The notes under the pieces: generated by a model | Databases searched by the model: none | What the model was told of the DNA's origin: nothing | The model's input: the letters and a program-made list of their open reading frames with translations, nothing else | Assembly (NCBI GenBank): GCA_036172245.1 | Contig: JAYWIR010000023.1 | Span: 496,001-560,000, forward strand | Reading direction: 5' to 3' | Length of the DNA stretch: 64,000 bases | From: Raillietiella orientalis | Lineage: Eukaryota | Shown: in pieces, positions 9,701 through 44,300 of the stretch | How positions within the stretch are numbered: the stretch's first letter is position 1 | How the letters are laid out: each line of letters begins with the position of its first letter | Translations under genes and position numbers: made by a program

Positions 9701-12700
9701 CACAGAAGAACTGTAAATAATAAGCTATAAACATTCCTTGCCAAGCCAGTCACGTTCCTCTGATTCAGGAAATGCCCCAAAGCAAGGATGCCATCCCGGA
9801 AGTATTTCGACACGGCATTCTCTTTTCAACAAGAAGGGCATCATCAGCGCTATCTTCGTTTCGTAGAGACCACAGTTCTTAAATCCAGGAATCTGTCTCG
9901 ATAGGAAGCCCAAGTGAAATAATAGCATATCTTTGAAAGTGATCACTGAAGCTGGGGCTGAACTTACACTAGAAATAATCTCCGGTGAGAGTTTGCTTCC
10001 CGAGCACCGCTCAAGTCGACCCAGAGAGTCCACAGCTTGCGTACCGGAAAATCCTGCAAAAGGAAGCTTTGCACCTCCAAGTCTAGCCCTATAAATAGCT
10101 TTTGGTTCAAGGCACACAGAAGGAAGCAAATCATCGGTTTTCTGCGCTGGTGCTGCAGCAAACTTTTTATGCTGTTGTAAAGTACAGTCTAAAAAGTTCA
10201 GAAAACCGATGATGCTTTGGTCGTGTAAGAGCTTGTTCCTTCCTCTTCAGATGCAGAAATGCTTTCGAAAAAGCAGAAAGAAAAAGAGGAATCGATCGTT
10301 GCTCAGATACTACGACGAAGACATGTCTTTGAAATGCCTCCCACATTTGTGAACCCCCTTTAGGCGCGTAGGCGATGTCCCTATAGCTAACGGGTGGCAT
10401 GATTAAAAAAAAAAAAAATTGACGTAAGTACCTTGGGGTGCTCACTCTCGGATTTCTCTCAGTTCGCCGTTACAGAAGCTCAGCTGATTTTTGCTGCCTA
10501 TCTCAGCTTGCTGATTCGTTCACTCCGCCCTCCTTACCCTTTGGCTCTAAGTTTAGTCGAGAAAATAAAATCGTCGCGAAAAGTTCGCTCCCTCGCTGTT
10601 ATTTACCGTCGTCTTCTTCCCTCAACTGGGCATCGAGGAAAACGCGATTTATGGCTCTCTCACGACATTTTGATGTTCTTGTTGTCACTGCCCAAAAGCT
10701 TCTTCCTTTTTTCTTTTTCATTTCAATGGAGATGTTTTTCCATTTTTGACCTTTTCCTTCGTCCCATGAATGGAATTTTGTTTGGCGAATCTTGCCTTGT
10801 CTTCTGCTCACCATTCTTTGGCTTGCTGTACTGCCGACCCACGTCCCTCACTTTCACGCATCCCTTCCTGACGGTGCAACGTGCTTTGTGGGATCTGAGG
10901 ATGATTGCAGAGCGCATCCCCTCGCCGTGAGGATGAACCGACATCGAGCCTCGCGCGTGATGCCAGCCTCGGCCAGGCTGTCCGCAGGGAGCAAGACGCG
11001 CTCCAGCTGACCTTCGAGGAGAGCGAGGAAGGGGTGCAGGGAAAGAGGGATTTCCTACCAGAGGCGGCAGGCCGATCCCGGAGACGAGGCGCAGCCCCCG
11101 CAACGAGTCTTGAGAGGCGTTCCATGAGTACTCGTGGACGCCGGTAACCGGGCAACCCTTGCGCTTCCGGAGGGAGTTTGGCGGCCAGTCTGGGCCCGAT
11201 GAGGTGCTCAGGAGAATCCGGGAGGGACGCCGTGGTCAGACTTGCTGGCAGACCTGACCTTCGATCCCTTCCGCGATGGTTTGGCTCTCCGCCAGGTGGC
11301 ATCGAAGTGGCACGACGAATCCGTGTCCTTGGATTCCGACTCCCTTCGGGGCACTCTTGGCACCGGAGAGGCGCGCCCAAGTCGATCATGAACGTCATCC
11401 GACTGGACGGTGAGGCCGGCTGGTGGTTGACGCCACCGTGCATGCGAGAGCACGCGGTCTGGTGGCATCTGCTCCAAAACACTTACGTGCGTCACAGGAG
11501 TCACGAAGGAGCCACACCAAAGAGCGGAACTGAGGAAGCTGCGTCCGTTGAGGGGTACTCCATTTCCCTTCTTGCTAAGGAAAGGGGAGGGGGAGGCCCT
11601 TCCATCTGATAGGTACAGCTTCTGAACATAATTCCAGTGGCGGCGCGTGTCTGTAGCAGGGAGATGGCATGTGCTTCTATAGTAGGGCCTGACTGTTGTG
11701 TGTGCCACGGGAGAGCTGATTTTTTTTTTCCCCTTGACCAACTTACGGCATCGCGCCTGTTCTGCTGGATGACATCGCATGCCGGAGACATCACAGTCCA
11801 GGATAGTACGTAGTCACATTGCAGATGGGTCAAGGAAGGAGGGGGAGAATCAGAAGGCAAGACTCTCTGCTTCCACTCCTCGGCCTTTCGCCTCCTCCTC
11901 CTTCCTTTCGCTTCGCCCGACCGCTCATCTTTCAGCGCTCTCAGTAACACAGCTTCCTCCGCGTGCTTGCGGTCAGCCTACCGAGACGGTGGGAGAGAAA
12001 TGGCGGTTCCTCCTCATCGTCATCCTCGCAATCCAGGCCTTACCCAAATGAGGCGGCTCTCCTGCCTGGATAAGCTGCGGCAGCGGAGTGCAGGGCGGCC
12101 TGCACCTCCGTGATGAGCGTCGGTCTTCAATCTTCGTGTGCCTCCGCTGGACGGAGGATGGGGAGGAGCTCTTTCGTGCTAATGTGAGCATTCATGGGTC
12201 CCGTCGAGAAGCATCTGTAGTTTGACACGCTCATTTGAGCGTTTTCCTTGCCTTTTGACCTGCTGCTGACGCCATTGATGACGTCTATGTGCCGCAGCTT
12301 GCAAGACACCCACCAACGGTTCCTGATGCAAGATGCCAGAGGCTTCTCATCCACCATGCACCCAATCTAAGCTCCTCCCGGTCGTTTCCAAGGAGACGGA
12401 TGCTTCTTCAGCCGAGCGCGGAATGCTGCTCTTGCATAAAAAGGGCCCAGGTTCTTGTATCCCTTCAAGAGCGCGCTCAGTCAGTCATCTAAAGAACCCT
12501 TCTTCGCTCTCTTCTTCCAATATCCTTGTGAGGAAGGATATGTTCTCAACTTGGGGCTCGTTCTCGACCTCAAGTCCGCGCCGCTTGAGACTGGTGAGAT
12601 TCCGAGAGAGAGCTGCTAGCTGGTGAGCTCCGGGACTCACGGCGCGTGGGCGCTCATCTTTACCGGACGGCGTCAACCACACTTGGGAGAGCTCCAGGAG

Positions 12701-12899
12701 AGAGAAAAAAAACTCAGCAGGGCGTGAAAGGAATACGCATCTGTCAGAAGGGAGCTGTCAGTCTCGGATCATTCCCGAGAGCTAGCTGGTCCGAGAGGAA
12801 CAGTCAGGCGATTTGACTCCGACCTGAAGCTGCTCTCGGTGAACGACTCTAGCCGCCGCAAGCGGTTCCACTTTTCCCAATCCCAGGTCTGCGAGGAGG

Positions 12900-14200
12900 A
12901 CTGGGAGGCCGGATGCGGCCAGATACGCGCACCGTGGTGGCGGACGTGCCCCTGCGACTTGCCCCTCATTCACCGTAATCGCGGGCCGTGTTCCCTGTGC
13001 TGTGCTGCTTCGGACTGCACGTCGCAGGTCCGTTCCTTGTAAGCATCTGCGCGCCTCGAAGGGACTTCCGTGGAGAACATAGGAACCTGGTCCGTTGCCA
13101 AAGCTGTCACGTCGCCACGGAAACGAGCCGACCTCTTTGTTCTTCCTCTCGGGTTTCCCGAGAGATTTTTCGTCGAGGTAGAACGTCGAACTCCACGAGC
13201 GCTCTCCCTTTGCTCGCAGCCCACCCTTGCGGGGGGAGCGAGGAAGGCTCGCTGCCCCTTTGTGGGTCTGAGGGAGGAATCCGGAAGTCGTCTCCAACTG
13301 TGTGACCAGGCGGAGCGTCACCGCTTGCCCTTCTCGTCGCCTCTTCCGCGAAAGGTCGCAGAGAGGAGGCAGGTCCGTAGCTGGGTGGGCGCGTTTCGAC
13401 TCGCTTCCGAGCTGTCCCATCCCCAAAAGGCCGCTGCTCGGAAGGTGGGTACAGGACTGCAGAAGCGGACTGTCTGATGCTCAGGGCAGGTCGTCCGTCA
13501 TCTAATACTGTCTCTTTCCGCTTTGGCGACGGCGCACCATATGGCCAATAATGAGCTCCGTCAAAGAGTCCTCTTTCCATGCAGGTTTCCCTCTTCCCTT
13601 CCTCTTCCGCCATGCTCCGCGAACTGATCTCGCTTGGAAGCCACGGTATCTCCGACATCCAATGCTGATGCCCAGCTGAGGTACCACTCTCTGACGATCA
13701 AAGTTCGCATTGGGGGCACCTTTTTTAGGGACCCTCGCGCATCCTCCAAAACAGGGATGCCAGATGCCGCGGTATCCGTCTCGGATCCGGCTGCCCTATC
13801 CACACTGCTCTGCCTGCTTGGCTGCGGTGCGGGGCGAAAGAAGACATCAGGAGAGGTTCAGGTTCTCAGAAGTGGACCCAGTATTTCGTAGTCGCCTTCT
13901 CGCGGCAGCGCTCACAGGGAGATGGAACGCGAGCTGCACGTCGCCGACAACCTCTCGCTGCTGTCAGAGATTTTTTCTCCACTCACTGTTTGCTCACTCG
14001 GGTTGCACATGTTCGGCAGAACGCTCATGGACGCCCACCGCTAGCCGGATCCTTGCCAGACGTTGCTGGGATCCCCCTTTGAGAGAAGGTCTTCTTATGT
14101 CTCCAAGGAGTCCCGGATCAGCCGGCACACACCCACGTTTCCTTGCTCCCTTCAGCATCACAGCAGAGAGGTTGTGAGCGAGCGCACCGCCTACCACACC
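12900..14200 (-). pseudogene. Possible decayed ankyrin-repeat gene relic
   Basis: Across shifting frames: KKGAPNANFDRQ.., LTELIIGH/GAP..DDGRPALSI, GSFPWRRDSFGNGP, LQGTD../HSTGNTARDYG, resembling the ankyrin consensus LLxxGAxxNxxDxxGxTALHxA. No intact ORF; the GC-rich coding-like sequence continues down to ~10800 but is unrecognised. Confidence 0.3.
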
Positions 14201-17949: not shown

Positions 17950-20500
17950 AATTATGGTGCTGGAAATCATAGTGTCTTCGTTCTCCTTGGTTCTGCCGAC
18001 AGATGTTTATTCTTGCACAGCCTACATAGAATTCTCAAAGAGTGCAAACGGACAACTTGTCAGCTTGAACTCTACATAAAAGTCTGTTTATGAGACGCTA
18101 AGCACGTTTATCCCTGGAACACATCATCCACTTCTGTTCATTCTACCCGCTGTGAAGGCTCTTTTTCCTCCGCGCCCCCCAGAAAAGCCTTCCTCGTTTT
18201 GCCAGCTTTCCTCCACTGGTGTTCTACTCCTCTTCTTTAATGCTCCTCTCTCCCTATTCAAGCAACTGGGAGTTTCCTCCGTGAACCATTTAACGAGTGA
18301 GATCCGTGAAACCCACGTCTACTTCCTGCCACGTGCTTCCACTATTCGATTTACTCTTTTTAACCCAAGTGCTGTGGAGTTTCGTGTTTGTTCTTCTTCA
18401 AAGTACAATTTAGGAAAGAACAGTCAATTTGAGAAGATGCCGATTCCTTGATGATCAGTACTTTGATATTGGAGAACGAAAAAAATTCTATTTTCTCTCT
18501 CTTTTTTTTACTTTTGGAAACGAGTCTCCCTCAAAAAAGGCGAATTCTCCAAATGTCATCTTTTATATCTGTTTTTTTTTTTCCATGCTACTCCACCTAG
18601 CCCCGCAGTCTGTGGTAAAATAAGAACTGGTCTCTGTGTCAAAGTTGTACAGATGTAATCCATCCAAGAGGAATACCTTCTTCTTAGTGCTGCTCTGGTA
18701 AGTGAACCCTCTGCTTTAGCTTCCGGGTCAGCCAAATTCTTCGTATCAACACCAAGCAGTACTTCTGATGCTTTCTCTCGTCATTTTCTATTCGAATTAT
18801 TCTAAACCTGAATTTAGGAGCAAGTTGAACTGAATTTGTGACGCATGTGTTCCCAGCGAAGATTCCTCCTTGCCGTGCTTCTACAGAAAGCAGTTCACCT
18901 TTGTTTTTGTTATTTACCATTATACGTCACAAGGAAGAAACCCCTCTTGCGAAACGAAGGATTCAGAGCATACATCAGATGCTGAGGTTCATGTTTCTGT
19001 TTTCCGTGGTTTCAAGAGGTTTCTGATGGAATGGGTTGCCATTCCTTCTCATGGCTTTCCACGCTCATTTTTGCAAGTGCTCATAATCATCTTGAGCGAA
19101 AGAATGTTCAAACTTTTCCTTTAGACGCTCGTAATCGTGTTAATACCAGGCATCGGATAAGTATTTTCGGATAAGCAGTGTACAATTAAGGTGTGTGCTG
19201 AGAACCCAGATGCAATGAAAAACTCGCTTTCAAACTAAATCACACACAGCAATGCAGTGCTGTGGTATAATCATTCGTGCTCTTTCCAGCATTTTCGCGG
19301 GGCGCTGAACATGAAAACGTTTTCCCTTTTCTCCCTTGATTTATCTACCATGAAACACGCTCAATGAAATTTTCTAAAAGTATTTATCACTATTCCCATG
19401 AGCAGCCCCACGAGTAGCACTGATTTTCATGATATATGGTCCACATGGCTCATTCTCGGCTCAATTGATTAGCAGAGTAGCGTTCGGTAAGATTTTAACT
19501 TCCAAAGAAGCATCACTGCGTTGCCAGGGACAGATGGAATTTTTTATCCAATCGCCTCCTAAACATGTTTAAGTATTTCGCTTTCGAACTCGGGATGTCT
19601 GCCTGTAATTGATACTCCGTTTCAGAATGGAAATCGGAACGTGTTTCTCTCTTCCTTCCGTGCAAACCAGCTAGCGTTTTCTTCACGAAGATACCGATTC
19701 CTCCGATTCATTCATTAATTTTTGAATTAACGACGATTGCACTTCCTTCACCTTTCGCTTCGCTTCAAGTCCACTTCAATCCTTCAGTTCATCCTTCTTG
19801 GAAGACTCACTTCAGGTCCTGAAAGGCTGGATTTTTGTCTTCCAGAATTTAGCAACAGTTCTTGCCATCAGCAAGTTGCGATGAATGGTCCGCAGGTATC
19901 CTTCCTTTCCACTCGACAAGACTTGATTCCACTCTTCGTGATTTCCGTGTTCCTTTCACCCGTTAAATCGTGAAGAGCTGTTCCTTCAGCCATCCTAGTC
20001 ATTTCCTCCCATTCTACCTGTCTGGCAGTGACCTGCTGCCCGGTTTCTTGGCTGGATTTAATACTCCTTACCCCCGAAATCAGTGAAACCATGTAACCCC
20101 TTGGTTCTCTACAGCTGTTGTCGGTCTCACCAAGAAGTGCTCGCATTCCTTATGCCTCTCCATTCTCATCACGACTCCGTCGTTTTTTCTTTTTCTTGTA
20201 TCAGCCTTCCTTCATCTCTCCGATTTCCTCACGGATGACAACTGCCGCTGTATTCTCGGGAATCTCTTCTTTTCCTAGTTGCATGCTTTTTGATTCCACT
20301 CCAAGCTCAAGTGCATTCCTCCTCAAGGAGCCACAACTTGCCCTACACAAACTTTGCCATGCCCCTTTCCCATGTTTTATTAACAGTCCACACCAACACC
20401 AACAGTCCACACGTTTAGAGAATCCTTTAGATTAACTGCTAGGAATGTAAGAGTGCGACCACGTTTCCACTATTACATCGAGTATCCTCAACCAGAAAGT
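17950..20500 (-). mobile_element. Decayed LINE (possibly RTE-like)
   Basis: VNNKNKGELLSVEARQGGIF (ORF 18684..18920) resembles the RT 'VRQG' motif; purine-rich coding-like minus strand on both sides. Clade and limits uncertain. Confidence 0.3.
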
Positions 20501-23500
20501 TCCGTTTATTAACCGATTGTGATTGAATTGCTTTTTTTCACTCGTTTGCCTACCGAGGCTATGCTCTGCAGCCCAAATGTGGATTTTATTTGTGAGGTGC
20601 ATTCTCTTCATGTGTGAAAGAGGCGCATAAGCTGAACGAAACCATTAGGGTGATTACAAAGACGTGGTATTTCTGTCTTGCGGACGCCAATTCCTCTTAA
20701 GGACTCACATTCACTGAGCATCGAGTGCAGTGCGTTTCTTTATTCCAATTTTACGGTCGCAGTCCTCATCCTGGGAATCTGCCCGAAATCTATCGTTTGA
20801 AAAGTCTCATGCATTCGGATTAGTCTCCAATGGGTTGTGAATACCAGCACCGTACACAAATAACCATGGCTTTCTTTCACGGAATTCGTTGCTCGGGAGC
20901 CCCGAAAGTCGATATTTCCAGAAAACATGCAGAGGCATGGCTGTTTCGAGGGGTCGTTACTTCATGTGCTTCCTATGGTCACCCTCTCGAAAGAGCACGC
21001 TCGAGCCAATATCCGTAAACCCTTGCATGAGGACTCTTAACAGATGCTTACTTAATGTTGAGATCGAGACGATCCTTTGAGTGAACGGAAATCGAATTTT
21101 CCCAGATGTGAGCGAAATTAGTTGGCGCCGTCGCCACAAAATCCATTCCAGATACAATCATGAGATTGTCCCATCCTAACGCCAAGAGAACTAACGAACA
21201 CAATAGTTGTTTCCTTGAACTCTCATGCCGTTCGTTCCCTTTGATTCGTTCCCGTTCAGTGCATGAATCCAGCAAACCTCGAAAACTGAATATGGAAAAG
21301 TAGAGAAATGCGAATAAGATGTCGAAGACTCCCTCTGCAACTGTCTACAAAAGCTGGTCACCTTGTCAACTTTGACGTGAACGCTCAGAGAGTCTGATAT
21401 GGTCCATTATGATCAGCAATCCTCCTCCTTTATCACGACGACTTCAGAACTTTATCGGAGAAACCTGCTGTCCCGTCTTTCAAAAAGAGATGCGATTCGA
21501 ATCACAGTGCGTTCCGTCCATTTCATATTTTTTTTTTCTGCGTGTTTACTGTACGCAAGGAAGCCACATTCTAGGAACATGGGTTTCTGGAATCACTCTG
21601 AGTTCTTGAACTCATTGATTTAGAGTTATCCCGCAAATGGGAGCGCATTCCTTCCAGGAATGCATGGAGAACAATTTAAACACTTGTTCTCCTTCTACCC
21701 AGTGATTTAGGCAGGAAGATCCGACTTAGAGATTAGATTTAATCCAAGAAAACCTGCTGGAGTGCGTGATTTATGAGAACTTCACGACGTTTCCTGAATT
21801 CAAGAACACGAAGTTCACTCTGCACCCAAAAAAACAACTTTCGATTTTGGTACTTCAGCATGCTTCCATAGATAGCCAAGTGAATTTCTGGACCCAAATC
21901 CTCCAGGAAGGTTCTTTAGGAATTCGGCGGGACAAAACACCCCGGTAGATCAACTTTAAGGTAGGAATGTTGGCCCGCGACGTTGCGAGTTTACACGCGA
22001 AGTTCATTCCAACGGAAAAAAAAATATCCCAGGCGACTGAGCTTTGAAGTAACACGCCTTTGCAGCTGCACAGATCGAGGATGCGAATTCTGAGATAAAG
22101 CTATAAGATTGACTTCAGGTCACAGTGCTGCACTCCTGGTGTGAATCTGTAAGCAGGCACGCGGAGCATTGAATTAACGCGCTTTACACAGGTGATGACG
22201 AAAATCTTTAATAATCGAATCTACTTGTTTTACTCGTGAATCCCGGATCACTCCAAGATCTTGTCCACGTTTAAAGGATGTGCCGAAGAACATGTCTTCA
22301 AGGGAAGGAAAACATGCGGAGCCGGTGAGTATCGAGCAAGTGCGACCATTTTTTGCATGGCGGGTTCTTCTAGAAAATAACGCAAATGATCTTAATTGAT
22401 GGCTTCCCTGCTTGTTTTCTTGGAATCCAACAGCCTGCTAAAATCACGCCGATCTCGATTATGGATTTTAGTTTCCCTCTTCGGGGATCTTTCACAGACA
22501 AGCAGAATGGTGGGCTCTCTCCGAAGAGACTTCCTGGTCGAAAGAGGCGGGAATCACTTTCGGCCCTTGGAGTGCACGTAACACGAAAGCGTGATGTTCC
22601 AGCAAGTACAACTTTATCATTGAGTTGGTTGGATTTTTGCTGCTCACACTGAGCTTGCCGTAACACAAATTTCTGGCCGGACAAAGGAACGGAGCAGGAG
22701 AAAGAAACAAAAGCAAGCATTTGAAATACACGATCGTGTCTTGCTAAGCGACAGTTTCCATTCATCCATTCCATTCATGGACGTTGGTGTTCAAGCATGC
22801 ATTTACGAAACGATTACTTTTATTGACCGGTGGTACTGCTTTCATCTCCAACGCTGCACCCTTCAGCCTTTTGTTTTCTGGGAAACGGAACGGTATCTTA
22901 CAGTAAAGGGCATTGATCGCTCGCGGGTACATTGCTGACGAAGTTCTTGGCAGCTACAAAATTTTCCCATCTACATGGGAGGCCTTTTCTTGATACGTGA
23001 AGTCTCAACCCTATACGGCGTATTTATAAAATCTGCTTTCCTCTATCCTCTTCACTGTAGCAAAACATCTTCCACCTACCTAGACTTTTCAAACTGATGC
23101 GACGCATGGAGTTCCCCATGGCTTCCGAGCCGACAGTTGAAGGTCTTTTCTCCACTGCTTTGATATCTTTGCAAGAGCAGGGCTGTAGGGTGTGTAGGCT
23201 CTGGGATTTGAGTTTTCCTCGAGACTAACGCAAACCTTGCATTACGATGTACAGAGTCCAAAGTTTACAACTATCGTGTGAGTCTTAGGCGTTGATGTCC
23301 GTGACCTTGTGGGCACTCATCTGTGGATGATGCAAGATCGTTCCAATCTAATTATCAAAGTTCTTTCGGAGATGTTAGGAACAAAGAATACCTTTCCAGG
23401 ATGCGTATGAGAAACAGTAAGTAATAATAGGTGAATATCAATGTCGATTTCGAAGGGCGATTCTCATGAGTTATTACATGGATATCTTCCTAATGCCTCT

Positions 23501-26500
23501 TCTAGGTGCTTGACAATTAAGAAATCATCCAGAAATCATGTATGAGCATTTTCCCTTGGAAATGTCCAGCTTCCTGCTCTTTAATCGGTCCTTTGGACGC
23601 ATTCTTTGAGTACTAGATTCGGAAGAGACCTTTGGAAAAAACTTCTCCATCAGTATATGCAATTTTTTTGGTACAACAGGGAATCGCGAATGCCTTCAGA
23701 TGCTCGACGATCTATGCAAGAAAGCTGGACTTTTTATCAACTCCAGCAAGTGTGCGTAGTCCGACTCCCGAGTAACGGCACCAAGAGTCAGAAAAATAAG
23801 CTTTAGGGTTGGTAAACAGGACATCATAACCCTTGTGTCAAAGCAAGCGTACCGATATCAAGGAAAACTGCTTGAAGTCTGGGCATATTCACATTGGAAT
23901 TCACCGAACTTCAGAGGCCAAGGCAGTTGGCATAATGAATTGCGGACTGCTTCCCCGGAAAAAGTGGATGCCATGAAACTTTCCTTTTTCCCAGCCCTCC
24001 TTTGGACCAAGTGAAGGGGGGGAGGGGAGGGCAGAGTCTTTTCTTGGTCAGATACTTTACAATGAAAGAATGCCATGCTCCCTCGCTCTCAATCTTTCAC
24101 TAACTGTTCATACTTTTCCTCATGTGTTCATCAAAAGTTGCATCTTCAAATGTGATCTCCAGCACATTTTCTTCAAAAGACCACGTTATCAGGGTAAGAC
24201 GCTTGTCTGCCAATCGCCTTATAAGTGTTCCTTCCATGTTTTCTCGCACGAATGGTCCCGAATCCCTTCATCTTTCTGTGGAGTCTGCAATCTCCTTTAT
24301 CACCTAAGGTAGCGTTCTTCGGGACAAATCCTGTATAGCTAGACCTGGTGAGGTTGAGTTTAAAGCCACCATCTACTGCGAAGTTGTCGGTCCTGTTCGA
24401 TAAATGAGGCGATTCCCCTGAAATCATTGGCATACACAGGGGTTTACCTCTTTGTCTGGTACATTTAGTTACTTGGTGAGTTGCCTTCCGCAGTTCGAGA
24501 ACACCTTGAGTGCTTCCTTGAGTGTTCCTGGGACTAGCAACGTGCGTGTTTGGAAATGTTCAGGAAAGCACATTCAAAGAAAATTTTTTTTTGCATTTAA
24601 TTCTATGTCGAATGGGACCAAATCTTTTTGTGTTCCAACTGAGTATGTACCACAGTTCATCGATAAGATTTCTAGTTTCCATGTATTGGGAATAACAAAA
24701 TTCTTGGAATGATCTGTTCCTAGTAAAATGACTTGAAGCAATGAAATTGATGAGGATGTGAATATCCAGAATTGAAACAGTTCCGCTTTCTTAGTAAATA
24801 TTGTTTTGAATCTTTATACTATTTTCCTTTTCCTCGAGACCACCATCGTTTAGCTACTTCCAAGCCACTCAAATATTGAATCCGTGGGTATAGATAGAAC
24901 CGTGTTTTAATATATGATCTAGATTAAATCCATATCGGTGATTTCACTCAATATCATTTCAATAGTATCTTTTGTATCATGCTTTTTACGAAATCAGCAA
25001 AGAAAATCTCAGAACAGTGTAAGTGTAACTGTCCTTATTATTAGAAGTACCATGCAATGATTAAAGTGGTACCTGGTTCACTAAACTTCAGCTGCATAGA
25101 AATGATAAAACAATAAAGACAAACATTATCAAAAGTCACGGATTAAGAGTCCAGTCATTTGACTTGACATTGACAACAGATTAAAGAGAGATCTCTCTTC
25201 CTTGAAATCAATAATAAAGAGAATGTGTACTGTAAGTGAATAATAAATACCTCAACAGATGAGCATCTCTGGTCCAGATTTGAATCATTGCAACTTTATC
25301 AGGAGCTTCTTTTTTGGTTTTCTGAAGACACAGACAGCTGTGTTTGGAACACTACTAATGGGTCTTGAGGTAAATTATTCAAAGAGATCTTCATAGCTAA
25401 ACTGATACTTTTTGCATTGTTGATTCCTGGATAGCCTGTAACATTCCAATATATGGCAGAAATTATATGTAACTTCTAGGAACTGAAGGCTTTCAACAAC
25501 TGTTTGTAAAGCCATTATTGCATATTCGATTGCAAACAGACAGCTTTGCACTGATAGTTTTGTTAAATGTCTGTTCCAGTATGCATGTACGCATTCTAAT
25601 TTTTAAAAATGTGCGATTTTGAACTCATGATATGAACAAAGTTTTATGAGCATGTTTGGTATTTAATTCGCTTTACATTTTTTTTTTTGGACCTGGAACA
25701 ACTAAATAGCATTTCATGGTTTCAACAATAATAGATTTTTTATTTTTTTTTCATGCTTTCTGATACTTTATGATATAAGAACTTTCTTGTAGTATTTGAT
25801 TAGGATTCACTTAGGAAAGCCAAGAAACATTGGGTATAGAATTTCAAGTATTCGAAATTCATTCCATTTTAGTCTGCATGAGAATAAAAACTTGTGCAGC
25901 AGCTTTACAGCAAGGATTTTTGGATTACTTTAATTTTATTAATTGTAATTTGTATTACTTGAGTGAACAGGCCAGGAATTTATGGTGAAACAAGCGCTCT
26001 TTGCAAATCATGGAACAGAAAATGGAACCTCCGAATATCTGCTACCGAATATCATTTCAATTATAAATAATTGTAAAACAAACAGACTTGCATGGAACTT
26101 TTTCATATCTGAATTTATTTATAAATGTATGTATTCTGTTCAGGATACAAAAGGAACTAAAATATATGAATACTTTATTTTTTCTCTGATAATACTTTAT
26201 AACATAATTCATCTTTAGATTACATAATTTTGCACACATAAGCATCAAATAATTATCTAAAAGTAAAATTCAGGGTACTAGCTTTAGGTACTAAGAGGAG
26301 GAGAATGAACAAAGAAGAGGATACACATAATAAATATTGCATAAGATCGTAAAATAACAGCAGAGATACAGATAGGAAACAAAAAAAGGTGAGGAACTTG
26401 CATTTCTGAAAGACATTAGTATCTATCACCAACCAACCTGTTTTGTTAGAGGCAAAGGAAAGTAGTCAAGACTGCACATTTCCCTGAAATATAGCTGTCG

Positions 26501-26517
26501 ACATCAATTTATCTTAA

Positions 26518-26757
26518 TCAATCAAATCCGAAGTTTGGCAATGAACAGAGTTCCTTCAACTTGCCTTCTGGTTTTTGTTGCAAATGTTCCTCAATGAACT
26601 GACACATGCAACGAGAATTCTTCATGTGTCTTTCAGGAAGTGGACGGAAGGTAACATCGTTCCTTGTCATAGGAACATGCAGATCAAGTGCTTTTTTTAA
26701 AGTCAATTTTGTCCATCGTTGTGAATAACGAAGCAACAAAAGAGCTGCGCGCTCTCT
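26518..26757 (-). CDS. TMEM268: Alternative terminal coding exon B of TMEM268-like (paralogue of exon 27061-26780)
   Basis: Phase-0 acceptor tttctttcag at 26758; open frame RERAALLLLRYSQRWTK...RHMKNSRCMCQFIEEHL...FD*, homologous to exon A. Confidence 0.8.
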   Translation of the reverse strand, partial: RERAALLLLRYSQRWTKLTLKKALDLHVPMTRNDVTFRPLPERHMKNSRCMCQFIEEHLQQKPEGKLKELCSLPNFGFD

Positions 26758-26779
26758 CTGAAAGAAATATATCCTTAAA

Positions 26780-29700
26780 CTAGGCAGAAGACAACTCTTG
26801 TGATCTCTTCACACAACTATTATGCAGGAAATGATAAACGCGGGATGGAATGGTGGGAGTATCATGAATGTTAGTCACTGGTTTGTAGGCCAAATGCTCT
26901 TCAATGTACTGGCAAGGGCAGTAGCTTGTGTGCAAGTGACGCGATTTAGGCGAGACACTTCCTATGTTTTTGTGGGATTCTGTTTTCCAGGAAAGTCGAT
27001 TCCGCAAATAATCTTTAGCCCATCGCTGAGAATAGCGCAAGAGAAGTCTCCTAGCTCTATCCTAGACATGCAAGAATCATCGCGCATGCAAAACATGCAC
27101 AAATCTACCTGTTTGCGGGATATTTTTCCCATATTGGGGCCACTGATAACAATATCATGGTCTTCGATATCCATTCGCTCACGCAGTGACTTTTTATATT
27201 CTTCTCGGTTTACCAAATTGCCTTGCGATTCCTCCTTTTCTATGACTTCATGTAGCTTTTCCTGAATAAACACTAGTGTGTAACAACTTCATAATGGAAT
27301 GCTCACCAAGCATTTGGAACAGTCAAAGTAAATGAAAGTTAAGCTGACTTTATGACAGGACATGTGGCCTCTGTCATCTAATCCGATAATTATGTTATGA
27401 GTAATAAAATGCTGGTTAATTCCTGCTATGCATCGCTCCAAATTGCGACTGAGCTATTCACCAAGGATCCAGCATTAAGAGATGCTCTGTACTCACCTTC
27501 ACTTTTAGCCACATACAGAGAAATATGGTAGATGCATTAAGAACAAGCCATAATACACCACAAGCAAATAATGTCAAGCCCTTCAAACCAGAGAAAAGAA
27601 GTGCTAATAATATAGCTAAACCAATAATGATCCACATCATCAGAATGCGTTTGTAGCAAATATTGTACAGTGTAAACCGCACATCATGAATCAGCATTTC
27701 CAAGGCTTGTACATACTCCTCAATGGTTAACTAAATGCAAGAATGTATATAATCATCAGAAACACACTACCGTCAGTCCATTAGCCATAAGTTCTTCAGG
27801 AACTAAATCGGAACGGAATTCTGGTGTAGTAACCCATGGCAATTTTGTGTTAAGAGGAAGCAAAGTGACAATAATGTCTCCATTCTCTGCAAAAACAAAA
27901 ACATGTTTATTGAAAAAAAACACGGAAATCAATCGAAATATGAAGTAAATAAAAGGAAAAGAATAACATGCACACCAATAAAGAGAAAGACTTTAAACAA
28001 TTTTTCTATTCTACAATATGTGCCCTAAATATCCATATTCCATGTTACTTTAAAATGAAGGCATTCAAACTCTAAAAACATGAAGTCCTGCGATTATAAA
28101 ATTTCATCCTCAATCACATAACAAAAATGTCACTCGACATATCAGAATGCAAAAAGTCTGGGTAACTTCTGTTGGATAGTCTCATAAACTGGATAACATT
28201 TTTGGGTGGATAACTAAGGTGTGGTGACTAAACTGCTTATAGTTGACTCTTTAACAGCAACAGTCTTCAAAAAAAAAAAACAAATAAAGCAGCCTAGGAT
28301 TGGAATACGAAACTTAAAGATACATTTCAAGGTTTGTAAAAATTGAAACAAAAAATCTTAACAAGGTAATCTTAACATCAATGTAACACACTAAATACAC
28401 CAGGAGACATTCATCAATAAATACATTACAAGCCTTTTGGATGACATGGAGAGTACTTTATAAAATAATCAAATCAATAAATTAGTCACCTCCAACAGGA
28501 TTACTGAAAGTGCCTTAAAATCAAATGTCCTGGCTGCTATAAAATTCATATAAATTTAACACGAAATAAGGTGCAAATGATTTGATCCATGTTTGTCTTA
28601 GTGATCAATGAAATCGTGGTTCCTTCACAACTGGATTACTGAATACATACTGGACTTCGAAAATTTGAAATACAAGAACAAATTCTCAATTCCCCCCTTG
28701 AAGAGAGAGCAAACAGAATACAATCCAATGTTTCAGAAACACTGCTGAGAAACACTATGCTCCAATTCATTTGAATTTTCCAAAATACAGCTGCACATAT
28801 CTGGAAAAACATGCACATACTGTATCATAAGGCAGTGCAAGATGTTGCAAACCATATACTAATTTTCTGAAACTATTCTTCCACAAAATTCCATTTAGTT
28901 GAAGCCAAAAATGGTAAAAATAAATTTACACTTCAGGATAATTCATGTGAGAAGCAGAACATTTGTATCTACTAAATTTACATGTGCGATTCCAAAAAGA
29001 CATCAATTAGTCATAATAATATGCATTACATGATCCAAGGCTATAACACTGGCTCACTGCAATCACTTAGTGAAATGCTGAAGTGAGTCTAAGACCAAAA
29101 CTTTATTTGTATTAAAAATTATATGACAATTTCTTTTCATAAAATTCCTAATTTACATATAATTTTAACACTTGAAAAGCTTCTATTTGTAAAACGTTCA
29201 AATCTAATTATCTGAAAAAAAGTATCAGAATCTGAAAGCCTTCTCTTTAATAATCTTCCATAAAATGCGAAAATTCCGAAATTTCTCGACTTTAAATGAA
29301 GTTCGGAAATCTTTTTATCGGATGGATGTTTTAGATTTCCCCTTCATATTCATTTTACTTTGTTATCTAAATAAAATTGTAATCATAAGAAATGCAGAAA
29401 ACTTTTCGTTGAATCAGAAGATCATTAACTAAAATACCATAAGCAAAAAAAGCTAACTTCCTCTAAGACAGTGTCTTCAGTCTACGTTTCTTCCTTTCAT
29501 AACGTTTCCGACAGCATAACTTCTTGATTTTTCCAAAATTTAGAATCACATGTCATGTTTGATGCATTGAAATTTTCGAGGAAAATTCAATTTGGTTTTC
29601 ATTGCTAGTTTCAGGGTAATTTTATTTTCCAATTCAAAGTATTCTATTTCACTAGTTTTGAAAATAGAGACTCATCTGAGTTTATTAGATGCCTTTCGTA

Positions 29701-33150: not shown

Positions 33151-36100
33151 TCATTCGAATTTAGTCCACTTGCTCTGTACAGTAGTAACTAATGGTTGGG
33201 AAACAGGAAGCCCTTGTGGTTCATTATCAGATGATGCAGACAATCTGTGGAAATGTGGCTTGTTTTCCAAAAAAAGTCCATCATCTGAAGTGAGGAAATC
33301 CATGCTATGCCTTTTATCAGCCTTTAATTTTTCAGAAAACTGTGTGGTATGTGTGGCATACAAAGGATTGCATTGTACCGTTTTGTCAGTAAGTGGGTCT
33401 AAGAGACTTAGTGAAGACAGGTTCACATCTAACTGAATGAGGTCCTTTCCATCATTCTACAAAGATGAACAATTAAAAGATCGTTAAAACACAATCACAA
33501 ATCCTCAACCTCAGAGGATGATGATAAGTCAACATCGCTTGTTCTAACTGGAGATGAAGAGAAAACATCACTGGTGCTTTTAGACTGCCTAAGGGTTCCA
33601 TTTTGCACAGAAGAATCTAGGGTACATTTGCAGGCTTCAGTTGAAATTGATTCTTCAGAAAAACTTGGAAGAATATGGAATTTGTCTGAGTAACGACATT
33701 CTTCTTGTGATGCAGGAGAATTCAGCAAGATCCTAGAAATAGCATCGACAAATAAATACAAACACAAACAAAACAAAACCCAAAAGCAAAGAATCAAACC
33801 TAGCACTAGGTTTCTTATATGACTGAACAGCAAATACACTACGGATCCCAAATCCAGGCAATGTTACCAGATGACGTTTGTACTGAGGAGAAGGGGGAGC
33901 AGAAGAGCTCTTTTTATGGTGTTCTTCCTCTTTGGAGTTATGTAATTCACGAATACGAGAGCACAAACGCTGACTGTGAGCCTTGACATTTTTTCCTGTC
34001 TGCTTTACAGATTTGACAACAGTACGCACTGCAGGGTTGGTACGGTTTCTGACAGATTTCAGCCACTCTTTAGGCACTGATTCTAGCCACTCACGATACT
34101 GTGATAGACTAGAGGCATCTCGATCTGAATACATGCACACTTCCATCTCAAATTCATCTGAAAATCCTTGTCCACTGTTGAGCATAGCTAAACGTTCTTC
34201 TATAAACTGTTGAAAAATCTGTAGCTGCAGCATTTTTTGCAAGAAAGGCTGCATGGCTGTAGGTCTGCTATGTACAAAAGCTTCAGGTGAGAAACTGATT
34301 TTTTCGCCTTGCTTAAAGCGAAGGGCATCTCTGTAGCCACCAATTAACTGCACAAGAGCACGCAAAAACGAACGTGCTACACCATCACCAAGCATAGACT
34401 GGGGATTTTGCAATCTTTTCCGTAGTGCAGATACAACTTCAATTGGAAGACTATCTAAGTCTGAAAAAGGAGTCATCACTTTGTTGGAATCTGCATCCAG
34501 AATAACAACATCGCCTAGATCTTCTAGAGAAATCCTCTAAGCAAGTTTAATGCATCCATTTTGTGTCACCCCAACGCACCTCAAGCAATTGTGTAGGAAC
34601 TCCAATAAGAAAAGGCATTGGTGCTGCTAAGTAATCCAATACATGTTTGGGAAGAACAGGAATAAAAATATGTTGCCAGATCATCGGAGTGAGCAAAGAA
34701 TTTGCAGCTTGCACGCAAGCACTGAGTCTGGATAATCGGGATGATTTTATAATAATTCTACGCTCATACAACATTGATGCAAACAAGATCATCATGTTGT
34801 GAGCATTAATGGCATTGAAATATTCAGCTAGATTTCGCTGAAAACAACAAAAACTACACTGAGAAAACAGTGGACTCTTACATTTTCTGGGATGGAGGGG
34901 AGTTTATTGATATCTGGGATCTGACAAATGAACTCCTGTAAGCAGATCCTGATGACTATAAAATTCACAGTCAGCAGTTACAAGCTCACTTGTTTTCCTT
35001 GATGATACTTGTAAGAAAGTTTTGTTCCAGGACTAGGAACCTCTGAGTTATACAGCAAATCCAGAAGTGCATCAAAGTCTGTTAAATCTTTCATCTGCAT
35101 AGTTTCAGCTAGGGCATTAAGAGCTTTGTAAAAGACTTCATGCCAAGGTAAGCAACTTAAAATAACCAAAGCTGTTTCACCAACAGCTGTATGACGACAG
35201 AATCCAAATCTCCATGTTGAATCAGAATTGGTCAAAACAAAACTGAAGTTCATGACCGCATTGCTTAAAAGAAATTGCCAGTCAATATTTTACATGTTTT
35301 TACATCGGCTTTCATTACTCATTCGGAGTACGCAGCATGATTCCAATATAAATATTCATTTTCATCGAACCTTTTATTGTGAAAAAATCACCCAAGATAA
35401 AGAATATTTGGCCATAAAAAAATGAAAAATTGCCAACAAATAATAGTTCCTTAAGCAATTAACTCGCTATTTAATCACTCTGGGTATATTTGAAATGTTA
35501 AAACAATAGCAATTTCTGTTTACATAGATGCAAATGAAATGTTATGTATTACCACGTGAATTTACAAGGAAATGTAAATGAAGGAACTGATTTGAGGATT
35601 TCTTTATCCATGTAAGTGTGAGGAAACTTCTGCACTATCCATGGATTTTTTTCTGGGCTTTCTGGAGCAACAATTTCACAGAAACATTCCATCATCTTTT
35701 TGGGGTTTTTCCTAAAATAAACAGTAAAATGAAATGCAATAAATTTCATAAACATAATAAAAACCAACAAACAAAATGACTAAACTCCAAGCTACAGATA
35801 CCACAAAATCAGTGAAGTACTTCTACTTAAAAAAATAATTCCAAATTAACAAATTTCCAAATTCTAATGCAGATGGTGCAATGTTTAATTAACCAACTTA
35901 TTATTAAGCATGCTTGACTTTGATATGAGCCAAATAAAGTACTGATTGATTAATAAATAAGAAAGCATGCACTATAAACTGCAATTGAGTCATGCGTTTT
36001 TCTCCAAACCTGTGAAAAGGTTGTTAGCTAGTCTTTTTGTATGAAAGTTATCTTTTCTTGGATTAAATTATTGATTTCTTAGCATGATTATTCTATTATT

Positions 36101-38872: not shown

Positions 38873-41335
38873 ATGGCGTTAAAAACTTATGGTGAAAAAC
38901 CGGTCAGTTTCCAACTAGAAGAAAATGGAGAATTTTATTGTATTGGTTCTGAAGTAAGTGAAAATACACAAAGCATGGAAACATTGTTTCTTCATTATTG
39001 ATCAAATTGCATTTCTACATGTGAATTTTAGGAATTTGAGTCCCTGGATGAATGGTTGTCATGAACGTATTTTGCTATCCTTAGTTTTAAAACTTTCTAA
39101 ATGAATGTGATTGATAGGTTCAAATAAGTAACAGCATTGTAATAGTATGCATGAGTGTATTTTTCTAACGATTTTCGTATGATATCCATTGAACGTTTGC
39201 TGAGTGAGTCTTTGTGTATTCTAGTGTTTGTGTCTTTACTTAAGAAAGTGACAAAGACGAGAGACGTAATTATTTCAAAGCTGTCAAGCAGAAAACTTTA
39301 TTTGTTAGTCACTTTCTAGCTCTTTCCGTTATGACAAAATGTGGTTTTTTGATTTCATTGTGTCATTACAGGTTGGCAATTATCTCCGATTATTTAGAGG
39401 TTCTTTGTATAAGAAATATCCTGGGATGTATAGAAGAACTATCACCCCGGATGAAAGGAAAAAGTTATCAGAGTTAGGTATGTCATTTCTATACCTTGAA
39501 AGTTCTTTGTATGGTCTTGCTACTCAGAAAGTCTTAAGAAGAAAGAAACTTACTATCCAGACCATTTAAAAAATACATTATGAAACAGGAATGCTCAAAG
39601 TTTTAGTGTATTTTCTATGTACTTTTAAATGTGTTTTCATAGGTCTTAGTCAGCACCTGCTGGCATCAAATATATCCCTTTTGAAAGCCTCTGAAGTGGA
39701 AGATATCATTGAGGGCAATGATGAAAAGTATAAAGCAGTTTCTGTTCATTCTGAGCCTTTAGTTTCCAGGTAATTTTTGCTTTGATTATAAAACTTCTAT
39801 GGTTAGCTGTAATCAATTATAATAAATTGGAACTGTTCACAAACAAATATTTCAAAAGTCCTAATAGTCCCTCCTTTAGAGGGACTTGAGGGTTCTTAAG
39901 AAAGTGACAAAGATGAGAGACGTAATTATTTAGAAAACACTCATAATTAAAGATTTTCAAGACTGTTATCTGAAGGTTACCAAAATCAAAATATCTGTTT
40001 TCTATAATTTAAGTATAGTATGAGTGCATTGCTAAATTTTGGTTAATCCATATTTTTAAATTTCATGTTTCAAAATAGATTTGTTTCTCATGAGCAATGT
40101 GATGCTGATTTTGGGGATTTTTATTCACATAATTTCTTTCTTTCTTTGCCAATAAGCCCTTATAATGAAAAGTTATAAGAAATGCTGAAAAAGAAGTTTT
40201 AAATTTCAAAATCAGAGTTAATTTGTGCCATGATGAATTGTTGGCAATGTTGTATTTGGTCCAGTGAAATCCTGAAATGTGGATTTGTGTCATGTATGCT
40301 TCCAATCCCTGCATAAATCTTGGCAGATTCTAATTTGTTTTCTGACTCATTATTTTTAAGGGAGATAAAAAATAGGAAAAGTACATGGCTGCCTCCTGTT
40401 CCCAACAGCTCTCATCACTTAGATGCTGTACCCCAAGCAACTCCCATCAACAGAAATAGATCAGTGAACAAAAAAGTTCGCACATTTCCATTATGGTAAT
40501 TGCACTTCTCTGTCGTACACCGTTATGGCCAGTTCTATAGTTTTGATGACACAGATCCAGCCTCCATTTATGAAAATGCAGCATCTTCTGAAGTTCTTGT
40601 ACCAATCCGACTTGATATGGAAATTGATGGACAAAAATTAAGGGATACATTTTGCTGGAATAGAAATGAATCGTTAATTACTCCCGAACAGTTCGCAGAA
40701 ATTCTTTGTGATGATCTGGATCTCAATCCAATAAGCTTTGTTCCAGCTATTGCTCAGGCAATTCGACAGCAGATCGAAAATTTTCCCACAGATAATATTT
40801 TGGAAGATCAGATGGACCAGCGGGTGGTTCTCAAAGTGAGTTCCTTTTTTCACCTCAAATTCAGGCATTCTTTAGCTGAACATCCATGTTGGCAACATAT
40901 CTTTAGTGGATCAGTTCGAATGGGACATGTCTGAGAAGATGAATAGTCCTGAAGAGTATGCACTGAAGTTATGTGCAGAACTGGGATTGGGTGGAGAGTT
41001 TTTGACAGCCATCGCCTATAGCATACGTGGACAACTTGCTTGGCATCAACGAACTTTTGCCTTCAGGTAAGCTTATGTGACTGCTGGCAGGACATTTGTG
41101 ATGTTTCAGTGAGAATCCACTATCTACTGTTGAGTGTCCTTTTCGAAGCACACCTGAAGCTGAGCACTGGGCACCATTTCTTGAAACTCTTTCTGATGCA
41201 GAAATGGAAAAGAAGATACGCGATCAGGATAGAAATACTAGGTATGATCATATGTGGTTCTCCATGGGTGCAGAATATTGTATTTATCTGTATAGGCGCA
41301 TGAGACGACTAGCTCAGGCCACTCCAGGATGGTAA
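38873..41335 (+). CDS. SMARCB1: SWI/SNF core subunit SNF5/Snr1 (SMARCB1)
   Basis: Exons 38873-38953, 39372-39477, 39643-39769, 40361-40495, 40541-40835, 40876-41066, 41110-41241, 41296-41335; all GT-AG and in frame. [44 protein letters not shown]...[23 protein letters not shown]...[20 protein letters not shown] is clearly SNF5. Confidence 0.97.
39239..39275 (+). repeat. 37-bp repeat in SMARCB1 intron 1 (second copy 39895-39931 in intron 3)
   Basis: cttaagaaagtgacaaaga(c/t)gagagacgtaattattt, 1 mismatch between copies. Confidence 0.9.
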
Positions 41336-44300
41336 ATAAAAAAAATTACTCAAAGTGGGTGAAGTTTGCCAGATTTTGCGCCTCCATTGAGAGATCCGAA
41401 ATCAACGAATCCATGAATGAATTCTTTGCTGTTGGAATCCACATTTAATTGTATGGCTGTGACCAATAAGCCAGCCATGTAAAACTTTTAGTGGATTTGT
41501 GAAGACCACAGCATACTAATATAGCAACATGTTGATTATCAGATTAATGAAATCCCCAAAGCAATGCATTGCACATGTTCTGTGGAACTAGGATGACTCC
41601 TCCTCTATTGTAACCTTCTTTAGACTCGATGGAATTTGAATTCGTCCTAGGCTAGAAGGTTGGCAGAGAAAGGCCAAATGATGAATGGAAAGAACCTGAG
41701 ACTATGTCTGCATTGCATCACTGTGCAGGTGCTATGTTTGTGAGCTTTCAAGTGAGCATCTTGCTTCCTGGTCCTTCTGCCAGTGCTATGCTGTCATCTA
41801 GTTGATGAATGCTGTCATCACCACCTCATGACAGCTGGCAATCCATCTGCAAGTCATCTGGCTGGCTGCATGCTTGGCTTGCTCATTTTCTCAAAGAAAG
41901 GCAATACCAACCCAAGAGCTCTGGCAATAAGATGTTCTGGTCAGAATAATCTCAGAATGGTTTGCAGCTGAATCCTCCCTTTCTCCCAGTCCCTCCATTA
42001 TAGGCAGATTCGTTGCTTGGGTTGAACTCTGGTCCTTTCATTTGTTCGTTTGCCTCTCTTCTTTATTGGAAACATGGCTATATACCATCACTTTTGTCTG
42101 AAGGATGCAGTAACATCACTGGACGAATTTCTCCAGTGATCAGTTGCCCATTATGCTCTGCAGATTGCCTCTGGATTTTACCCTTCTCATTTAAAGGAAA
42201 CTTCATTTCAAGAATTTGCAATCTGAGCTTCATTGCGAATTTTGGCATTTTGTCCTTGCTCTGGGTGTTGACAATGTCACCATGTGATTCCCCATCGCTA
42301 TCTGTTTCTCCACAGCTCATTGGAGCATGCAGAATATTACGTTACATGCTGCTTGCAAGTATAGGGGCGAGATTTGTCTGTGAGCTGACTGCTACCACAG
42401 TGCTCCAATACTATGTGAACCATGTGGGTTCACATTTTCTGGATAGAGAGACGAGTCAGTTGACATTAAAACGTGCACTGTCATTATCCTTGTCTCCCAA
42501 ACTTCACAGTGTGCTTCACGAGTACTTCAAAAGCATTGGAGTGAAGGAGCTTCATGCCAGTTGGGCTCCTGCAGTGGGATCATTGCTCAGCTTGGTTACT
42601 GTTGGTTCCAGGTGTCTGGTTCGTAGGCGATCAGCCTTTGCTTGCATTCCCACGCCAGTCGAGCTAGCAGTAACAGAACCATTGCGGGGATGGAATTCCT
42701 AGGCGTAGTGATAGGAAAGTAGAAGCCGCGCGGGGAATTTGTTACTCGGATCGTCCGGCTCGGTTTTCGTGTGAGAGGACTTTGACGGTCTCCGGAAATC
42801 TACCTGCAACGTGCTGCCACCAATTCTCAGCAACGGGTGATCCTTTCGAAAGACGCAGAGTGGAAGCTCTAAGCGGCAGCGTCATCTGCAGACCTCTGTA
42901 GACTCATTATAGTTCGCATCTTCCCTTCGATTCTGTGCAGCTTGCCCTTTTCTGGGAGGCTTGTTTCCCGATCGTCATGACTTCTGACGAAGTCTTCGGG
43001 CTCAAGTTCTAGATTCCTTGCGAGATGTGGAACCTCGTCTTCAGAAACAGGAGCGAGCGAGCTGCCTAAGAGGGAGGGATTCCGACTTGCCGAAAATGAT
43101 TCCAGTATGCGCTAGCAACTTCCTGAATTCCTGACACGGGATGTGCATTCGAAAACTCTCCGGAAACGTGCACACAACTATTCGAAAGATCGAGGAGAAC
43201 GGATAATGCGATGTTGCTTTCCCGAAGTGCTCCAAGGGAATCGCAACCTGGGTGCACATCATTATCATGGAGTCCAGACAACGAATAAGCAATTAAAGAT
43301 CCGGAAATGGCTCGTTGATACGTGTGTCACATGAGAAAACTTTTGGTGTGTTCTAATATCGGATCTAGCAGAGATTTATGGTATCGACTCACCCATGCTC
43401 CCGATGACACGAAGATCGAATCCAGTAAGAGAAACAGGAAGTAGCCCGTGCTTAAGATAGAGAAAAACTGTTAACAAGGCACGATGATGATACGACAAAC
43501 GAACCCGCCGCGGGTTCCCAAATCCATGTGAAAATCTCCCCCCTAAAACTACTAGGGGGGACGTCTGCTTTCGGAATGCGACTCCGGAACAGGTCTTTAA
43601 ACGCTGACGGCGATGTCCTTCCCAAACATTCTGAACGTATCGTTTCCGTAGGTCACATCGCTGGAGAATCCGTATCTCCAGATTTCGAAGAAGCTAGCCC
43701 AAACGTTAGGAACAGCAGTCAATCCGGACGACATGACTCTGGGGAAGCTGCAAGACGATCATGAACCGTGAATCGTCATCTCTTTGTCGAAGTACAACCA
43801 CCGGTAGCCGATCTGGCCAAGCAGCCCAAACCTCGGATGTAACAATCCTCCCGCTTGACCCCATTCACTAACCCCACCGTTCAATAAAAGTGTTGTTAAT
43901 TGTGCGTTAATAGAGAAAGAATATATATGACATGGTGTCAGGGCAAGTGATGAAACATGAGTGTGTGGTGAATTCGATGGCTCAGACGGTCTCTGACGAG
44001 GTATGTATAATTACGGTGATGATAGGGGTGGCGCTCTGCGCGTTGCAAGATAGTAGCTGGGCTCTGGTGGACCTCGAAGAGGTTCACGGAGTTCCGTAGG
44101 CTATTCGTGGGCTGGAGGTGAAGGGGTAGAAATGCTGGTTATTGCTCGTTCGTCTTTTGTCTTTTGCTGAGAGTGACTTGTGGGGAGCACCGAGGGGTGA
44201 ATTGGGGAGGATGGCTCGGGAGTGTTTACCTTTTCGCTGTTGTTGCAACATGGATGATGGGTAATCGTATGCCGAGGTGAACCGAGGAGGCAGTGGTTAA

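Follow-up and report, generated by a model that had tools for sequence, protein, structure and literature searches.

A probable ancient pair of alternative terminal exons in the TMEM268 gene of Raillietiella orientalis

This report concerns a TMEM268-like gene on the minus strand of a 64,000-nucleotide (nt) stretch of DNA from Raillietiella orientalis (GenBank assembly GCA_036172245.1, contig JAYWIR010000023.1, positions 496,001 to 560,000 of the forward strand). This whole stretch is called the window, and positions are counted from its first letter. The coding region of the gene has two homologous last exons lying side by side, exon A and exon B, each of which has its own stop codon and can be joined to the same upstream donor. 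These are probably an ancient pair of alternative terminal exons, through which the protein would exchange one two-helix cytosolic tail for another.

Two homologous terminal exons behind one donor

Exons A and B (Table 1) share one donor: exon 5 ends in ...AAA CAG at 27109, and the intron begins at 27108 with GTAGAT. The reading frame is in phase 0 at this common donor and at both acceptors. As judged by reading the sequence, the acceptor of exon A is the AG at 27063-27062, preceded by a poor pyrimidine tract, and the acceptor of exon B is the AG at 26759-26758, within tttctttcAG, preceded by a good one. The gap between the stop codon of exon A and the first base of exon B is 22 nt (26779-26758). 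An earlier sequence-only reading of this DNA had given the coordinates and phases of both exons, introns of 47 and 351 nt and the 22-nt gap, all of which were correct on re-reading.

Exons A and B are paralogues, with a similarity well beyond chance: 30 of 74 aligned residues are identical (41%) and 41/74 are positive, with an E value of 2e-17 for the single comparison. The product of exon A reads WAKDYLRNRLSW ... RHL ... CPCQYIEEHL, and that of exon B reads LDL ... RHM ... CMCQFIEEHL ... KPEGKL ... LPNFGFD. LLRYSQRW, RH and CxCQxIEEHL, the motifs named in the sequence-only reading, are common to both, LLRYSQRW being exact in each. A stretch of 79 open codons has a probability of about 0.008 of arising by chance, by arithmetic from the G+C content of the window (41.9%). 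The pair has the characteristics of tandem-duplicated homologous alternative terminal exons, i.e., homologous neighbours of equal phase, with usable splice sites, a single upstream donor and stop codons of their own.

The two endings in relatives

Relatives of the gene were collected by searches with exon A (18 proteins), exon B (exhaustive search, 55 proteins) and exon 3, and the resulting 192 were classed by a simple home-made motif rule. An A-type module alone is present in 69/192 relatives and a B-type module alone in 72/192; a single chelicerate-type module is present in 12/192, two of which are named mites; an A-type followed by a B-type module occurs in one model in 9/192; and 30/192, which are fragments or have other endings, have no module.

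There are five insects in which two isoforms of the same species are identical from residue 1 to the motif ...SR(K/R)Q, after which one continues into an A-type and the other into a B-type module: Manduca sexta (LOC115441024 X1/X2, 317 residues in common), Epargyreus clarus (X1/X2, 315), Aricia agestis (LOC121738217 X1/X2, 310), Nylanderia fulva (X4/X3, 399), and Drosophila navojoa (LOC108658627 X1/X2, 472). The branch point corresponds to the donor in the window, and these RefSeq pairs resemble the window in the point of divergence and in having both types of module; wherever a model of a relative contains both modules (9/9), A is upstream of B, as in the window. The alternative use of A and B, proposed earlier from the letters alone, is thereby supported at the level of annotated isoforms. 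Two further pairs are weaker, namely those of Cryptotermes secundus, in which an exon is also skipped, and Ooceraea biroi, in which the N-termini differ. RefSeq models labelled "isoform X" draw on transcript data. The window differs from the insects in the tail of its A module, which extends further beyond ...Y-K-P and has hardly any resemblance to the ending ...F-C-P-x-W-S-x-F-L-x-x-R-G-I of insects.

A third, unrelated short ending follows ...SRKQ in Thrips palmi X3 (P0142; relatives are cited by P numbers where they must be told apart) and in Ceratina calcarata X3 (P0182). To judge from these models, the family therefore seems to branch into different endings generally at the ...SRKQ junction.

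Conservation, orthology and age of the two exons

Among 37 A-type proteins 19 columns do not vary, and exon A of the window keeps all of them. Among 34 B-type or chelicerate proteins 12 columns do not vary, and exon B keeps all of these but only 14/19 of the A-type ones. Between A and B, the proportion of synonymous differences (pS) is 0.78, i.e., saturated, and that of nonsynonymous differences (pN) is 0.49. For 15 of the 30 identities the two exons use different codons, some of them two or three steps apart. A copy drifting over so long a time would be expected to lose invariant residues or its open frame, and purifying selection on both copies is supported by the sequence comparison, in agreement with what the sequence-only reading had supposed.

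For the tree of the modules, 173 module cores were cut (152 distinct), giving 147 rows and 67 columns; both parts of P0038, P0017, and the first parts of P0047 and P0049 were dropped, as chimeric or truncated. The A module of the window groups with the A-type modules, 61 in all, in a clan supported at 100/96 in the careful tree and at 96 in the quick tree. This clan spans insects, the barnacle Amphibalanus and the copepod Tigriopus. Hidden Markov models (HMMs) of the A-type, B-type and chelicerate modules were built without the window sequences. The A module of the window scores 88.5, 82.2 and 80.2 bits on them, respectively, and its B module scores 62.2, 86.0 and 74.6 bits. Compared with the ant modules, the B module of the window scores 68.2 bits with the second and 45.4 bits with the first. 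By identity its closest relatives are the B modules of thrips and termite (57%), and it has the B-specific tail K-P-x-G-K-L...L-P-(D/N)-F. Judging from these comparisons, the duplication predates winged insects, and it probably predates Pancrustacea. The old duplication suspected earlier is supported both by the position of window A in the A clan and by the saturation of synonymous sites.

Alternative explanations

Several observations weigh against an ancient pair of alternative exons. The isoforms of the relatives are database gene models, and for nine relatives the model places the two modules in a single protein; one of these models is from RefSeq (Bacillus rossius, P0156). A word-index search with exon B returned 59 candidates, none at E <=0.01. 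The B module of the window lies outside the A clan on a long branch (1.13), and its place among the B-type and chelicerate modules is not resolved by the tree; under the approximately unbiased (AU) test a tree in which window A and window B are sisters cannot be rejected (log-likelihood lower by 22.45, p 0.181); and window A favours the A-type HMM by only 6.3 bits. The structural models described below are of the Manduca orthologues, with a mean predicted local distance difference test score (pLDDT) of only 59.4 (B) and 63.0 (A).

The two-module proteins raise the possibility that A and B are consecutive exons of one transcript, in which a second intron of 55 nt would be removed, the stop codon of exon A would be intronic, and the product would carry two modules in tandem. 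The donor-like site inside exon A is in phase 0, the length of 55 nt is in line with the introns of 40, 43, 45 and 47 nt elsewhere in the gene, and the acceptor of exon B is strong and only 22 nt past the stop codon of exon A. Models with A followed by B exist for 9/192 relatives (four ant project annotations, P0001-P0004; the Drosophila navojoa project annotation P0121; Bacillus rossius P0156; and the unnamed P0038, P0047 and P0049), and the ant joint ...FLRDRGI + ERAELLLL aligns with ...FLHNSC + RERAALLLL of the window. However, the models disagree on where the modules are joined (the joint follows ...RGI in the ants, C-Q-Y-x-E-E in P0047 and P0049 and ...GINC in P0121, and the stick insect models read through), as happens when neighbouring open frames are joined ab initio. 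Moreover, for the very locus of Drosophila navojoa that has a two-module project annotation, RefSeq has A-only (X1) and B-only (X2, X3 and X5) proteins; many of the 69 A-only proteins stop directly after ...RGI, ...RGID or ...RGIN, which constitutes a conserved stop; and GTGAAG is a weaker donor match than the GTGAGT and GTGAGC of the gene. Most of the two-module models would then be the work of predictors fusing neighbouring open frames, real tandem isoforms may exist in some species, and for the window a tandem product is unlikely. A separate observation concerns the stick insects: in P0156 (Bacillus rossius) and P0037 (Timema) the A module reads in frame via a spacer into the B module, and loss of the A stop codon in these insects may have given a true two-module protein.

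Two other explanations concern the origin and the use of the pair. The pair could have been made by a duplication within the lineage of the window, or by gene conversion, so that it would not be orthologous to the insect A and B; this bears on origin only. Such an origin would fit the failure of the AU test to reject a clade of A and B, the nearly equal scores of window A on the A-type and B-type HMMs and the exact L-L-R-Y-S-Q-R-W of both copies, yet the best tree has window A in the A clan and window B outside it, and the tree constrained otherwise is 22.45 log-likelihood units worse. In addition, window B lacks 5/19 of the A-type invariant columns (D334, R337, R339, W342 and P363), all of which are present in window A, and favours the B-type HMM by 23.8 bits, and the saturated synonymous sites argue against a recent conversion; an origin of this kind is thus very unlikely. 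Least probable of all is that only exon A is used and that exon B is an unused leftover copy, still open by chance. Use of the near acceptor would give an intron of a size typical of the gene (47 nt), genomes with short introns favour the nearest site, and the word-index search with B was without relatives. Nevertheless, exon B keeps its 12/12 invariant columns despite the saturation of synonymous sites and reaches 86 bits on the B-type HMM, which did not include it; it has kept a B-specific tail (K-P-x-G-K-L...L-P-N-F-G-F), as in thrips, termite, ant and unnamed proteins, and a clean phase-0 acceptor with a pyrimidine tract; and the annotation of at least five insect species contains isoforms with B alone. 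A pair of old alternative terminal exons, of which one would be used per transcript, is preferred to all three.

How the ending may be chosen

If the near acceptor (27062) is used, the 47-nt intron would be removed, translation would end in exon A, and exon B would become part of the 3′ untranslated region (UTR). If the far acceptor (26758) is used, 351 nt would be removed, including all of exon A, and translation would end in exon B. Both junctions are presumably in use in this organism.

A pattern scan of the minus strand found no AATAAA or ATTAAA between the stop codon of exon A (26780) and 26179. The first canonical polyadenylation (poly(A)) signals downstream are two AATAAA, and the region that contains them (Table 1) is likely to be the 3′ end region common to both forms, in which these signals would be used. 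As there is no canonical poly(A) signal between A and B, A-type mRNAs should run through exon B as 3′ UTR, which is where the sequence-only reading had placed exon B in the A isoforms. We infer that the ending is chosen at splicing, between two 3′ splice sites, rather than at the poly(A) site.

Four short inverted repeats were found. One of 13 nt (85% complementary; 26624-26636 and 26758-26770) would allow the interior of exon B to pair with the B acceptor, both its pyrimidine tract and its AG, and one of 10 nt (90%; 26999-27008 and 27112-27121) relates the last bases of exon 5, immediately before the common donor, to the interior of exon A. The predicted fold of 26610-26785 has a z score of -1.20, with 29/200 shuffles as good. 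The inverted repeats and the fold are indistinguishable from chance and are given no weight as a selector of the ending. An Rfam scan of the whole window gave no family.

The exchanged module

The structure of the module was considered with AlphaFold models of the B and A isoforms of Manduca, built with alignments of 34 and 37 relatives, respectively. Both models consist of a disordered N-terminus, a helical membrane hairpin, a small β unit, a helix and a disordered linker, followed by the module. The helices of the hairpin are at 163-192 and 197/198-241 of the orthologue models (pLDDT about 74-91), and exon 3 of the window aligns here with up to 72% identity; by this measure the gene has the hairpin of two adjacent membrane helices expected of a TMEM268 protein. 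In the models, the module has two helices (pLDDT about 70-87) with a loop between them, a long one at 315-337 in the B form and 315-339 in the A form and a shorter one at 357-367 and 363-373, respectively. The long helix is predicted to correspond to the ...LLRY..RW... part, the loop to contain the invariant R-H, and the second helix to start from the invariant C-x-C-Q. In the A-type module K-D-x-L-R-x-R-L-x-W is conserved, together with a tail of its own, and in the B-type module L-D-L, C-Q-F-I-E-E-H-L and the tail K-P-x-G-K-L...L-P-(D/N)-F.

A two-pass membrane hairpin protein with cytosolic ends is proposed. Most likely, the swap changes the cytosolic partner that is bound by the tail, the module serving as the binding surface. 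A fold search of the PDB with the A-form orthologue model gave 74 matches at E <=10 and none at E <=0.001, and an ESM Atlas search with exon B gave no usable match. A zinc site with H, C, C and the H of ...E-E-H-L as ligands was rejected as a general feature, because the last H is not invariant in A-type modules, where W, I, V or L stands in its place in ants, moths and flies.

Gene model and family membership

The gene consists of five constitutive exons, followed by exon A or exon B (Table 1). The first intron is about 4.2 kb, and the following introns are of 40, 43, 45 and 47 nt. The donor of exon 1 is not pinned to one position, as an alternative, AGA|GTAAAT, lies 15 nt upstream; exon 2 starts at 27884 if it is joined to exon 1 in phase 0, and another AG gives 27886. 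The joint between exons 1 and 2 is the least certain part of the gene model. From the sums of the exons, the A and B proteins would have about 387 and 373 residues, respectively, with the first 294 in common.

Table 1. Exons and associated signals of the TMEM268 gene, in window positions
Feature	Position	Strand	Remarks
Exon 1, first coding	32320-32087	minus	ATG at 32320-32318; ends ...CAT CAG before GTATCA; N-terminal K-x-W-V-K-F-D-E motif; weak tblastn match to P0006
Exon 2 (NGDIIVTLLPLNTKLPW...ANGLT)	27884-27771	minus	acceptor within ...tttgCAGAG; donor ACG|GTAGTG; tblastn 58-73% identity to P0005, P0001 and P0011
Exon 3, two adjacent membrane helices	27730-27497	minus	after 40-nt intron; from sequence reading and homologues
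Exon 4 (LSRNLERC...DDRGHMSCHKVSL...)	27453-27307	minus	after 43-nt intron; from tblastn and sequence reading
Exon 5, last constitutive	27261-27109	minus	after 45-nt intron; ends ...GGAAAAATATCCCGCAAACAG (...GKISRKQ) at the common donor GT, 27108-27107
Exon A, terminal	27061-26780	minus	93 codons and TAG (26782-26780); phase-0 acceptor, 47-nt intron; A-type module
Possible intron inside exon A, 55 nt	26812-26758	minus	phase-0 donor-like TGT|GTGAAG (GT 26812-26811) to the B acceptor; would give A (83 residues) + B
Exon B, terminal	26757-26518	minus	79 codons and TGA (26520-26518); phase-0 acceptor, 351-nt intron; B-type module
First canonical poly(A) signals downstream	26184-26119	minus	AATAAA starting at 26179 and 26119 (pattern scan)

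The label TMEM268, which the gene had been given in the sequence-only reading, stands: PF14800 (DUF4481) is present in 16 of the 18 proteins matched by exon A, several of which are named transmembrane protein 268. Searches by tblastn with P0005, P0006, P0001 and P0011 gave colinear matches over five exons, with a combined E of 6e-75 for P0005. Exon 3 matches 143 proteins, of which at least 120 have 60-72% identity and are insect, copepod or unnamed proteins, called TMEM268, uncharacterized or unnamed. Membership of the TMEM268/DUF4481 family follows from this full-length colinear homology to PF14800-bearing proteins, and the gene is, on the evidence of its homologues, the TMEM268/DUF4481 orthologue of a pancrustacean arthropod.

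PF14800 was not matched by the five single-exon translations at E <=1; the exons encode 38-93 residues, and for complete arthropod proteins, too, the scores are no higher than 33-55 bits. Neither exon A nor exon B has a Pfam match by itself, and the Pfam DUF4481 model aligns to arthropod proteins over positions 2-179 of its 293, ending before the terminal module. A protein identical to that of the window was not found in the searched collections, the best identities being 62% and 72%. In a metagenome scan, exon 5 retrieved a single locus (L001) that is not a TMEM268 gene (best tblastn E 0.034).

Further tails branching from exon B

In Hymenoptera, termites and Drosophila, further spliced tails leave exon B exactly after K-P-R(G), which suggests that a donor is hidden in the G-K-L codons of the B tail. 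In exon B of the window, the codons for E-G-K-L are GAA GGC AAG TTG (26568-26560, minus strand), so that the spot reads G|GCAAGT, with a cut after 26565. No counterpart of the Hymenoptera, termite or Drosophila tails was found in the window: when the C-terminal 60 residues of 13 proteins were used in tblastn, all matches between 20000 and 33000 were to A and B, and four loose motif patterns gave nothing on the minus strand of 18000-26560.

Perhaps these observations can be brought together in one reading, which is offered tentatively and is more doubtful than the alternative pair itself. The tail switch, in a membrane protein little characterised in other respects, would be at least as old as winged insects, or as old as Pancrustacea if the A-type modules of barnacle and copepod are true orthologues; the R-H...C-x-C-Q modules would dock different cytosolic partners or hold a metal ion; and the G-K-L codons would double as a donor to further tails, presumably G|GTAAGT, whose counterpart in the window could be either of the rare GC type or no longer in use.

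Comparison with known systems

Homologous alternative 3′-terminal exons that arose by tandem exon duplication have been described for human CAPZB and for Drosophila Mhc, pip and PGRP-LC (PMC3228551, PMC9013439). The window resembles this type in having adjacent, related exons of similar length and equal phase, with their own stops and, as predicted here, one exon per transcript. In the available text of these two papers, most such cases are treated as a choice of poly(A) site, whereas the exons of the window are 22 nt apart without a canonical signal between them, so that the choice more likely lies between two 3′ splice sites that share a single 3′ end region. TMEM268 is not named in the available parts of either paper. 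Internal mutually exclusive clusters of the Dscam type, as treated in the same accessible text (PMC3228551, PMC9013439), share with the window the tandem duplication and the use of one copy per transcript (predicted here). In contrast, such clusters are flanked by constitutive exons on both sides, whereas the pair in the window is terminal, both of its exons have stops, and no further coding exon like those of Hymenoptera, termites or Drosophila was found downstream.

Human TMEM268 (C9orf91) has two transmembrane domains, and its residues 104-342 mediate binding to integrin β-4 (PMC6748091, available parts). It resembles the protein of the window in its two adjacent membrane helices and in its DUF4481 region; alternative C-termini are not mentioned in the parts of that paper that were available.

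The arrangement in the window had been thought to be undescribed, and this stands in part. A literature search, with subscription journals outside its coverage, found no publication on arthropod TMEM268 or on alternative C-termini in it. A and B isoforms are, however, already in RefSeq for many insects. Homologous alternative terminal exons are thus a described kind, and the TMEM268 case is already present, unremarked, among the RefSeq isoforms.

Neighbourhood of the gene

Upstream of TMEM268 and on the same (minus) strand there is a neighbouring DENN-domain gene, with a dDENN domain (PF03455, E 3e-10) in a long open exon at 33736-34536. An exon of the SNF5/SMARCB1/INI1 orthologue (PF04855, E 2.8e-25) lies at 40500-40931 on the plus strand. 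The regions 1-6000, 10000-14000 and 44000-46000 have 51-58% G+C and long overlapping open frames on both strands, as against 29-37% G+C around the genes; these G+C-rich blocks are possibly repeats or mobile DNA.

What the two endings mean

Few kinds of alternative isoform have good prior odds of being functional; those built from tandem-duplicated exons are one of them, and here the swap would affect the cytosolic tail of a conserved membrane protein. The only relative that has been studied, human TMEM268, binds integrin β-4 with the region that extends from the membrane helices to the C-terminus (PMC6748091, available parts). There is also a consequence for annotation: ab initio gene prediction is apt to merge the pair into an artificial two-module protein, as in the four ant models and one of Drosophila navojoa, and the locus would be better annotated as two isoforms. 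The gain for biology is modest, and what is new is the recognition of the two endings of TMEM268 as ancient paralogues that appear to be under selection.

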